Positions 7,820 through 9,559 of a stretch of DNA of 64,000 nt are shown in pieces. Source of the DNA: an uncultured Verrucomicrobiae bacterium (GTDB lineage Bacteria; Verrucomicrobiota; Verrucomicrobiia; Limisphaerales; UBA11358); the NCBI GenBank assembly GCA_963842445.1, contig CAWJHF010000017.1:11706-75705 (forward strand), read 5' to 3'. A program made the position numbers and the translations under genes. How positions within the stretch are numbered: position 1 is the stretch's first letter; every line of letters begins with the position of its first letter. Below the pieces are notes generated by a model. That model was not told the origin of the DNA. It ran no database searches and was given only the letters and a program-made list of their open reading frames with translations.

Positions 7820-9559
7820 TCAGTCAGACAGTGGCTCGGCAATCAAATCGTAGTCCGTGTGGCCGATGATTCTGACTTTCGCAAATTTGCCAATCGGCAA
7901 TTTGCCGTGAATAAAAACGCGACCATCAATGTCCGGTGCATCGGCCTCGCCGCGGGCGGCAAAAAAGTGACGAGTGACAGGTGACGCGTGACAAGATTCG
8001 CCATCACGCAACAAACCATGTTCCCAAGAGCTAACGCTGGCCAGCCGGAGCTGTTCATCGCTGGCACGGCCTTCGACGAGGACTTTGATTTCGCGGCCAA
8101 CAAAGGATTCGGAGACCTGCCGGGCGATTTTGTGCTGTTCGGCCATCGCCACCTTGCGGCGCTTTTGTTTCACCTTGTCGGGGATTTGTCCAGTCATCGC
8201 CCCGGCGCGGGTGCCGTCTTCCTTGGAATAGGTGAACACGCCGAGACGCTCGAATTTCGTCTCGCGGATGAAATCGAGCAGCTCCTCGAAGCACGCCTCA
8301 GTTTCGCCGGGAAAACCGATGATGAAGGTCGTCCGCAACGCGATGCCCGGCACGCCAGCCCGGATTTTCCGGATCAGGTCAACGATGTATTGCCGTGAGG
8401 TTTCGCGCCGCATCCGTTCGAGCATGTTTTCGTGGATGTGCTGGAGCGGGATGTCCACGTAGCGCGCAACTTTCGGGCACGCGGCAATCGTGTGGATGAG
8501 TTCGTCCGTCCAATGCGCCGGATGGGTGTAAAGCAGGCGAATCCAGAAATCACCTTTCAGCGAATTCAACTCGCGCAGCAGTGTGCATATGGTCGCGGCA
8601 TCGGGGGGAAGCGATCTGGCGGTGGCTGAAAATTTTTCCGGCGACGAAATGGCGCGCCTGTGGTTCGGGCGCAAATCGAGTCCGTAATAAGTCGAGTCCT
8701 GCGAAATCAAATTTAATTCCTTCACGCCATTGGCAATCAGTGCCTTCGCCTCGGCGACGATGTCCGCCTGTTGCCGGCTGCGGTGCGAACCGCGCATCCG
8801 CGGAATGATGCAGAAGCTGCACGGGTGATTGCAGCCCTCGGCAATTTTGACGTAGGCAAAATGGCGCGGCGTCAGGCGGAACCGCGGCGTGCCGAAATCG
8901 GGGATGAAGACAGGACGCTGGCTCACTTCGAGCAATGCTCCTCCTCGTCCTCGTTCTTGTCCATTATCCTCGATTAACGTGAGGCGTGAGGCATGAGGCG
9001 TAAGGGCGGTTTTGGCTTTGCCAAATTTTTCTATGCCACGAATGGCTTCTTTCTGTGCGTGTTCGGGTTGGGTGCGCCGTTTTTCCAATTCCGCAATCTG
9101 CTCCGTAATTTTTCCCTTCGATGTTCGATGTTCGATGTTCGATGTTCGATGCTCTTCCATCCGTTCCGCGCGTCTTGCCATCGCTTGTCTTGCGATTTCC
9201 GAAACCTGCGCGACCTGATCAATGCCCATGAAGGCGTCCACTTCGGGCAACAATTTGGGCAGTTCGTCGCGAAACCGCTGCGGCAGGCAACCGGAAACGA
9301 TAAGGCTTTGGCTGCGATTTTTCGCCGCGCGGACCTCGGCGGATTCGAGAATAGTGTCCACGCTTTCCTCCTGCGCCGCGTCAATGAATGAGCAGGTGTT
9401 GACGATGATGGCATCGGCCTGCGCGGGGTCGTTGGTAATTTCCACGCCGTCTTTGAGCAGCGCGCCGAGCATGATTTCGGCGTCCACCAGATTTTTGGCA
9501 CAGCCAAGCGAAATCAAACCGACGCGCAAAGGGCGTTTGCTGGAATTTTTCCCGGTCAC
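7820..9559 (-). CDS. rimO: ribosomal protein S12 methylthiotransferase RimO, carrying two extra in-frame segments
   Basis: UPF0004 N-terminal domain (LGCAKNLVDAE, NTCSFI), radical-SAM CNHPCSFCIIP, and a TRAM C-terminus. At 579 aa it is roughly 130 aa longer than the enterobacterial RimO I recall. Confidence 0.85.
   Translation of the reverse strand: MTGKNSSKRPLRVGLISLGCAKNLVDAEIMLGALLKDGVEITNDPAQADAIIVNTCSFIDAAQEESVDTILESAEVRAAKNRSQSLIVSGCLPQRFRDELPKLLPEVDAFMGIDQVAQVSEIARQAMARRAERMEEHRTSNIEHRTSKGKITEQIAELEKRRTQPEHAQKEAIRGIEKFGKAKTALTPHASRLTLIEDNGQERGRGGALLEVSQRPVFIPDFGTPRFRLTPRHFAYVKIAEGCNHPCSFCIIPRMRGSHRSRQQADIVAEAKALIANGVKELNLISQDSTYYGLDLRPNHRRAISSPEKFSATARSLPPDAATICTLLRELNSLKGDFWIRLLYTHPAHWTDELIHTIAACPKVARYVDIPLQHIHENMLERMRRETSRQYIVDLIRKIRAGVPGIALRTTFIIGFPGETEACFEELLDFIRETKFERLGVFTYSKEDGTRAGAMTGQIPDKVKQKRRKVAMAEQHKIARQVSESFVGREIKVLVEGRASDEQLRLASVSSWEHGLLRDGESCHASPVTRHFFAARGEADAPDIDGRVFIHGKLPIGKFAKVRIIGHTDYDLIAEPLSD
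7961..7995 (+). repeat. GTGACGN heptamer element (family G) inside the rimO TRAM region
   Basis: aaaaaagtgacgagtgac at 7961-7978 is identical to 50774-50791. aggtgacgcgtgacaag at 7979-7995 matches 50828-50844 at 15 of 17 positions. Confidence 0.9.
8942..9153 (+). repeat. composite of tandem-repeat modules inside the rimO interdomain linker
   Basis: tcctcgtcctcgttct at 8942-8957 is identical to intergenic 396-411. Four (C[GA]T[GA]AGG) heptamers lie at 8978-9005. Four perfect CGATGTT units lie at 9119-9146, plus one imperfect unit running to 9153. Confidence 0.9.

Follow-up and report, generated by a model that had tools for sequence, protein, structure and literature searches.

Translated heptanucleotide arrays at three clade-specific loops of RimO in a Verrucomicrobiota order are probably tolerated microsatellites

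In the interior of coding sequences, repeats with a unit length not divisible by three are as a rule purged, and finding several of them inside a housekeeping gene raises the question of how they arose and whether they act as a switch. The gene in question is rimO, located in a stretch of 64,000 nucleotides (the window) from an uncultured Verrucomicrobiae bacterium of soil (positions 11,706 to 75,705 of contig CAWJHF010000017.1, GenBank assembly GCA_963842445.1), whose genome is a metagenome-assembled genome of 25 contigs and 3.77 Mb. A preliminary description of the window had proposed that this enzyme absorbed a composite intergenic repeat as an interdomain linker, and that the repeat might serve as a contingency switch. 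The analysis reported here indicates that the arrays are probably tolerated 7-nt microsatellites in old RimO loops, which evolve in place under purifying selection and constitute no dedicated switch.

The gene is described as follows.
7820-9559, minus strand: rimO, encoding the 30S ribosomal protein S12 methylthiotransferase, an intact open reading frame (ORF) of 579 aa identified by Pfam, TIGR01125 and an AlphaFold2 (AF2) model.

The product scored 461 bits against the NCBIfam RimO equivalog TIGR01125 (cut-off 356.95), with profile positions 1-431 of 432 covered, and was found to carry the Pfam domains UPF0004 (residues 13-112), Radical_SAM (238-431) and TRAM_2 (530-575). The radical-SAM CxxxCxxC motif is C243-x3-C247-x2-C250, within AEGCNHPCSFC, and of the UPF0004 cysteines, C56 and C91 occur in all of 131 RimO sequences and C20 in at least 90%. 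The AF2 model from a 131-sequence alignment had a mean predicted local distance difference test score (pLDDT) of 89 and a predicted template modelling score of 0.90, and superseded a poor model (pLDDT 55) built earlier from a shallow alignment of 25 sequences. Foldseek matched it to RimO of Thermotoga maritima (PDB 4JC0) with E = 1e-39 and a template modelling score of 0.92 normalised to the target, and the UPF0004, radical-SAM and TRAM domains and the CxxxCxxC motif are likewise shared with the T. maritima and E. coli enzymes. Thus, by equivalog score, domains, cysteines and fold the product is a RimO, and methylthiolation of S12 at Asp88 is its predicted activity.

The repeat arrays within the gene, and one intergenic array related to them, are the following.
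9117-9151, minus strand: slot A heptamer array of 5.0 perfect units (100% matches in Tandem Repeats Finder, TRF), TTCGATG on the plus strand and GAACATC/AACATCG in the sense direction.
8978-9005, minus strand: slot B heptamer array of 4.0 CGTGAGG-type units (sense CCTCACG; TRF, 85% matches), read as TPHASRLTL.
8939-8962, minus strand: hexamer array TCCTCC TCGTCC TCGTTC TTGTCC (sense GGACGA-type), read as QERGRGG and containing the 16-mer TCCTCGTCCTCGTTCT.
7966-7992, minus strand: slot C heptamer array of about 3.9 AGTGACG-type units (TRF, 80% matches), read within SCHASPVTRH in a TRAM-domain loop.
393-416, plus strand: intergenic hexamer array, TCGTCC x4, holding the same 16-mer; heptamer arrays come after it at 512-538 and 552-586.

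TRF and sequence matches recovered all three repeat modules reported previously between UPF0004 and the CxxxCxxC motif, and the reading frame is, as had been noted, open throughout the arrays, with a translation that includes ...EEHRTSNIEHRTSK.... The heptamers of slot A, counted before as four perfect copies of CGATGTT, are indeed perfect but amount to 5.0 copies of TTCGATG. This array is translated as EHRTSNIEHRTS (residues 138-149), three units giving a period of seven residues (EHRTSNI), and lies in the AF2 model in a loop with pLDDT of about 71-83 between helices 116-136 and 148-163. Slot B occupies residues 186-197 with pLDDT below 50, in a stretch (169-205, the end of the conserved core described below, slot B and the hexamer) that stays below 50 except at residues 193-195. 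Slot C, absent from the preliminary description, is at about residues 523-531 of 579, and the stretch around 513-530 is of low confidence (block-mean pLDDT about 50-55). As previously stated, the 16-mer at 8942-8957 is identical to intergenic positions 396-411; 0.02 chance matches were expected, and these are the only two copies in the genome. Both belong to a set of 14 GGACGA-type hexamer arrays in the genome, and the closest orthologues read RERGRGG at the hexamer site. The heptamer arrays of rimO are solo, slots A and B are never complementary, and neither an inverted partner nor a target duplication flanks them in the window.

The arrays fall in segments by which this RimO differs from that of T. 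maritima.
8885-9223, minus strand: interdomain linker, residues 113-225 (113 aa), clade-specific by comparison with 4JC0 and with distant RimO representatives.
9005-9118, minus strand: conserved linker core, residues 148-185 (about 38 aa), consensus K.I...L.ELEK....EHEKEESLRGTEKFGKTKT, defined by conservation profile and by the ratio of non-synonymous to synonymous substitution rates (dN/dS).
8585-8671, minus strand: second insert, residues 297-325 (PNH.RAISSPEKFSA...), highly conserved and repeat-free in this genome.
7964-8065, minus strand: third insert, residues 499-532, conserved SVSSWEHGLLR followed by the variable slot C.

Against 4JC0, residues 120-226 align with chain residues 108-131 (about +83 aa), residues 297-325 with 202-208 (about +22 aa) and residues 499-532 with 382-385 (about +30 aa). 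The respective segments measure 113, 29 and 34 aa here versus medians of 36, 7 and 7 aa among 120 distantly related RimO representatives (41-50% identity; 430-480 aa for those at 43-50%), so that the earlier estimate of a linker enlarged by about 85 aa was close; the second and third inserts had not been remarked upon. A long rimO frame (540-600 aa) with the linker was present in 41 of 41 relatives of the same order, the linker recurred in all of about 190 rimO loci gathered from relatives' genomes and metagenome contigs, and the 120 closest database proteins have 548-626 aa; records of the related loci are labelled Verrucomicrobia subdivision 3, Limisphaerales or Pedosphaera. Given this presence throughout the order, the linker is old and was not recently acquired.

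Protein and codon alignments of the orthologues gave one layout for the linker: a helix (113-136) continuing UPF0004, then the hypervariable slot A, the core, the likewise hypervariable slot B and the invariant RP.FIPDF.TPRFRLTP that forms the entry to the radical-SAM domain. In the AF2 model the core is a helix (148-163) followed by a disordered yet conserved KFGKTKT motif. Its dN/dS was about 0.25, that of the catalytic domains 0.07-0.10, all rough values since dS is saturated, and in slot A the proportion of non-synonymous differences (0.57) was close to that of synonymous ones (0.75). A Pfam search with the linker alone matched no family, and an Rfam scan of 7300-9800 gave no match. The core is possibly a motif that contacts the ribosome or S12. 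The view of the linker as built from intergenic-type repeats is accordingly right in that the unit families match the intergenic repeats of the genome, and wrong for the core of about 38 aa, which is under selection; only the two variable edges are repeat-coded.

Among 180 unique intact rimO ORFs, on which the array statistics were based, arrays of period 7 numbered 126, those of periods 4, 5 and 6 numbered 19, 17 and 15, and those of periods 8-10 were nil. The period-7 arrays cluster at residues 130-149, 190-200 and 520-529 in the numbering of the present protein, that is, at the three slots.
Slot A: period-7 array in 57 of 180 orthologues, 26 distinct units.
Slot B: period-7 array in 32 of 180 orthologues, 18 distinct units.
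Slot C: period-7 array in 35 of 180 orthologues, 22 distinct units.

In the closest subclade, characterised by AACATCN, slot A always measures 42 nt in the same register, and homogenisation of its inner units has produced AACATCG in this genome and AACATCC or AACATTC elsewhere; mosaic intermediates occur, and the pattern reads as concerted evolution at constant length. Other lineages hold in slot B hexamer arrays (RERGRGG) or doublets of GTAG-tagged repetitive extragenic palindromes (REPs) instead. These REP doublets are in frame in four loci (L002, L042, L046 and L123), where they read ...SAALCRDAATRH...; L002 has a perfect inverted repeat of 26 nt and the other three have shorter ones. In genome G008 the rimO unit, AATTCAG, is confined to rimO, in support of evolution in situ.

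Out-of-frame arrays were found in two of about 190 rimO loci (about 1%), namely in slot B of L031 (genome G016) and in slot C of L027 (genome G006). A change in heptamer number does shift the frame, as had been predicted. L031 and the metagenome contig L064 are 98.95% identical over 2574 nt, with one 7-nt gap in their alignment: L031 has three AATCCGC units (frameshifted) where L064 has four (in frame). Both frameshifts found outside apparently long-read assemblies lie in arrays, although these cover just about 1% of the sequence; the arrays are the frameshift hot spot of rimO, and one-unit slips happen. Four further disrupted frames were considered and rejected as cases of array slippage, all lying outside arrays: single-base indels in G018, L142 and L189, which are apparently long-read assemblies, and in the metagenome contig L075 an in-frame TAG at codon 347 in place of a conserved Ser/Ala (ELN*LKGDFW), either a nonsense allele or a sequencing error.

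The heptamers of rimO belong to a genome-wide population. Arrays of at least three units numbered 167 for period 7 in this genome, against 64, 73, 18 and 7 for periods 5, 6, 8 and 9, and the heptamer tracts comprise 3-5.6 units. Long open frames, which are not gene calls, contained 110 of the 167 heptamer arrays (66%) versus 86.5% of random sites, so the arrays are depleted from coding DNA yet common there. All nine array-bearing long frames that were tested are genuine genes; the genes with arrays include AddB, Mfd, a UvrD-type helicase, RecG, peptidase U32, a P-type ATPase and a class II tRNA-synthetase-like protein. By number of arrays (14), the slot A unit AACATCG ranks second among the heptamer units of the genome, and most of its copies form inverted-pair hairpins just past stop codons, the rimO copy being solo. 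Matches to (AACATCG)3 numbered 171 in G015, a genome of the same genus (85 forward and 86 reverse), 40 in G010 (16 and 24), 20 here (12 and 8) and none in most congeners; G015 represents a genome-specific burst of one heptamer unit.

Inverted pairs of (AACATCG)n, 20-40 nt apart, were seen in G000 at C2:71150, C9:356062, C9:516040, C13:70725, C20:28700 and other sites, and they look like terminator- or REP-like hairpins with heptamer-microsatellite arms. Further heptamer arrays of the window lie at 512-586, 16074-16097, 24986-25074 and 49302-49332, with units CAATCGG, CCTCAAC, ATTTACG and ATTTATG/AATCATA, and the pair at 24986-25074 looks opposed.

The preferred explanation may be put as follows. 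RimO of this order would have gained its three segments long ago, namely the linker (about 80 aa) and the inserts in the radical-SAM domain (22 aa) and the TRAM domain (30 aa), all of them combining a part conserved at the protein level with an unconstrained disordered or loop stretch (slots A, B and C). These genomes appear to generate and retain heptanucleotide microsatellites at any unconstrained site, along with hexamer arrays and REP-type palindromes, so that the three slots would become filled with short 7-nt arrays. Point mutations within a unit would be spread or erased by replication slippage or by intra-array conversion, with the consequence that related lineages share array length and register and differ in the homogenised unit. 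The array peptides themselves would be neutral, and purifying selection on RimO would remove frame-breaking copy numbers and keep the arrays nearly always in frame; single-unit slips would give rimO-null alleles, as accidents at a mutational hot spot and not as regulated switching. Several points limit this account or weigh against it. Errors of assembly could account for the two out-of-frame alleles, and Logan unitigs from metagenome runs break at the arrays. The saturation of dS leaves dN/dS only rough, and the conserved core is an uncharacterised clade-specific addition. Last, the genome-specific abundance of units is unexplained by simple slippage in situ and hints at dispersal or copying between loci; with its balanced strands it fits the dispersal of heptamer-armed hairpin elements.

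This last point leads to an alternative considered unlikely, namely that arrays are written or homogenised between loci by an active, lineage-specific process in a 7-nt register, which would repeatedly overwrite the rimO slots from a genome-wide pool of units. Heptamer-armed hairpins together with Y1/RAYT-type transposases, or a peculiarity of replication or repair, could be the agents. A Y1_Tnp gene (7358-7804, minus strand; Pfam, E = 3e-21; IS200/RAYT-like) is indeed found 16 nt downstream of rimO, and its product may be a RAYT-type enzyme with a bearing on the palindromic and heptamer-armed repeats of the genome. The alternative also draws on the strand-balanced, genome-specific unit counts, on the commonness of the slot A unit and its hairpin copies just after stop codons, and on the 18-26 different units per slot over the order. 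It is at odds with the restriction of the G008 unit to rimO, with the lack of a slot A array in G015 despite its 171 AACATCG matches, and with the slot A unit of G010, related to AACATCG but different; the single-nucleotide unit variants and mosaics within the subclade fit evolution in situ, and the rimO arrays are solo and not hairpins. An as yet undescribed process of this kind in Limisphaerales-type Verrucomicrobiota, amplifying units genome by genome and rewriting fixed permissive loops of housekeeping proteins, has a small chance of being real; if it were, the homogenised heptamer at a given protein position would vary from lineage to lineage, and null alleles would arise in lineages again and again as passing states.

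Somewhat less probable is a contingency locus, with tracts maintained because slipped-strand mispairing switches RimO between ON and OFF within the population, and S12 methylthiolation and translational properties along with it. Such a locus would be expected to have a non-triplet coding repeat, which rimO has in three independent tracts, and the two relatives frameshifted exactly within arrays, with L064 and L031 as an ON/OFF pair one unit apart, are of the kind predicted; moreover, rimO is dispensable in E. coli, and OFF states could be viable. The comparison with neuO of the E. coli K1 prophage CUS-3 speaks for the contrary, since there the (AAGACTC)n tract at the 5'-end runs from 3 to 53 units and is OFF in 65.6% of genomes (PMC13001214), whereas the rimO tracts have 3-5.6 units and about 99% of the loci are in frame. 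Both genes translate a 7-nt unit, with three units encoding seven residues, give a full-length product only in frame and change unit number by slippage, but neuO is a genuine switch, acting on an enzyme that modifies the surface. Where coding simple sequence repeats (SSRs) are associated with phase variation, they are over-represented towards the N-terminus of the protein (PMC3315296), and the rimO arrays are in mid-gene loops. Neither a long hypermutable tract nor many OFF alleles were seen, the gene is a housekeeping one and not of a class under fluctuating selection, and similar arrays occur in many DNA-repair and housekeeping genes such as AddB, Mfd, UvrD and RecG. Unit-number polymorphism that toggles the frame between near-identical strains was seen once, in the L031/L064 pair of relatives. 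A fixed array length with changing units, as in the closest subclade, is a signature of selection for the frame, and a switch as evolved function, as first suggested, finds little room here.

The recent in-frame insertion of a composite mobile repeat copied from intergenic DNA (a miniature inverted-repeat transposable element, a REPIN or an element like the Rickettsia palindromic elements, RPEs) is largely refuted and very improbable, and with it the absorption of a composite repeat by the enzyme. The 16-nt identity with the intergenic DNA, which speaks for insertion, is a match between two of 14 arrays of one hexamer family, and the linker and its core are present throughout the order and selected as protein. 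The in-frame REP doublets in slot B of four relatives likewise speak for insertion; the rimO arrays of the present genome, solo and never complementary, without an inverted partner or target duplication in the window, are unlike the intergenic inverted-pair hairpins of the same unit and are not dispersed inverted-repeat elements of the REP, REPIN or RPE type. Slots A and B as arms of a hairpin with the core as its loop were rejected for the same lack of complementarity and because the core is selected as protein. As for an artefact of assembly, which might be suspected in a genome of 25 contigs as repeats can mis-assemble, its probability is negligible: the stretch 8871-9128 recurs without a difference in a unitig of an unrelated soil metagenome run, all orthologues share the architecture, and the arrays are shorter than typical reads.

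In-frame repeats of other kinds offer a parallel to the tolerated microsatellites favoured here. RPEs are in-frame palindromic repeats. Intragenic REPs tagged with GTAG/CGTC are also found in frame (Di Nocera et al. 2013, PMC3733652). These share with the rimO slots, of which slot B holds GTAG REP doublets in relatives, the tolerance of non-coding-type repeats in permissive surface loops; the rimO arrays differ in being direct tandem repeats with no inverted partner and no sign of transposition, which evolve in place. Closer in kind are the bacterial heptanucleotide SSRs, known as tandem heptanucleotides in Calothrix PCC 7601, GGGAATC in Xanthomonas and GGGGA(C/T)T in Nostoc, and reported to be under-represented in coding regions (Rehm et al. 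2015, PMC4692102); the same paper cites a 2007 finding of an excess of heptamers among SSRs. The 167 arrays of the present genome, head-to-tail 7-nt units with period 7 over-represented, are of this class, and agree with it in their genome-wide excess, in a preference for about four units, in the many inverted pairs near gene ends and in their depletion from coding sequence. The difference is that dozens of mostly A/C-rich units occur here in place of one G-rich, quadruplex-forming unit, and that many arrays are in frame in housekeeping genes, at fixed loops conserved order-wide. No description of in-frame heptamer arrays at order-conserved loops of housekeeping proteins was found in the literature searched, and the rimO case is new in that short, solo, translated heptamer arrays, with units that differ between lineages, recur order-wide at the same loops of a housekeeping enzyme.

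One bacterial order thus keeps, at three fixed loops of RimO and in many housekeeping genes, the non-triplet repeats that are normally purged. The slots would provide a natural map of structurally permissive sites and a clear case of concerted evolution in a translated microsatellite of constant length, and one-unit slips to null alleles would represent a measurable mutational hazard. They also counsel caution, as an out-of-phase coding SSR need not mean a contingency locus. The conserved core (ELEK...HEKEES.RG.EKFGKTKT) may bear on the encounter of the enzyme with the ribosome.

Some minor observations concern the gene in its relatives. Downstream of rimO, at a distance of 100-800 nt, its last 18-34 codons occur again as partial duplicates in L033 (G015; 2756-2857) and L027 (3965-4018). 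Five sequences (P0015, P0023, P0045, P0053 and L075), representing some lineages only, continue after LDLRP in the radical-SAM domain with about 31 additional in-frame residues (SGTGVPPVS...HTGGTPVPLRP), which are probably the translation of a further dispersed repeat in a loop. Last, a MiaB-like paralogue in G000 (C11:55252-56670, minus strand) has an open frame of 654 aa versus about 450 aa typically, and may carry similar inserts.

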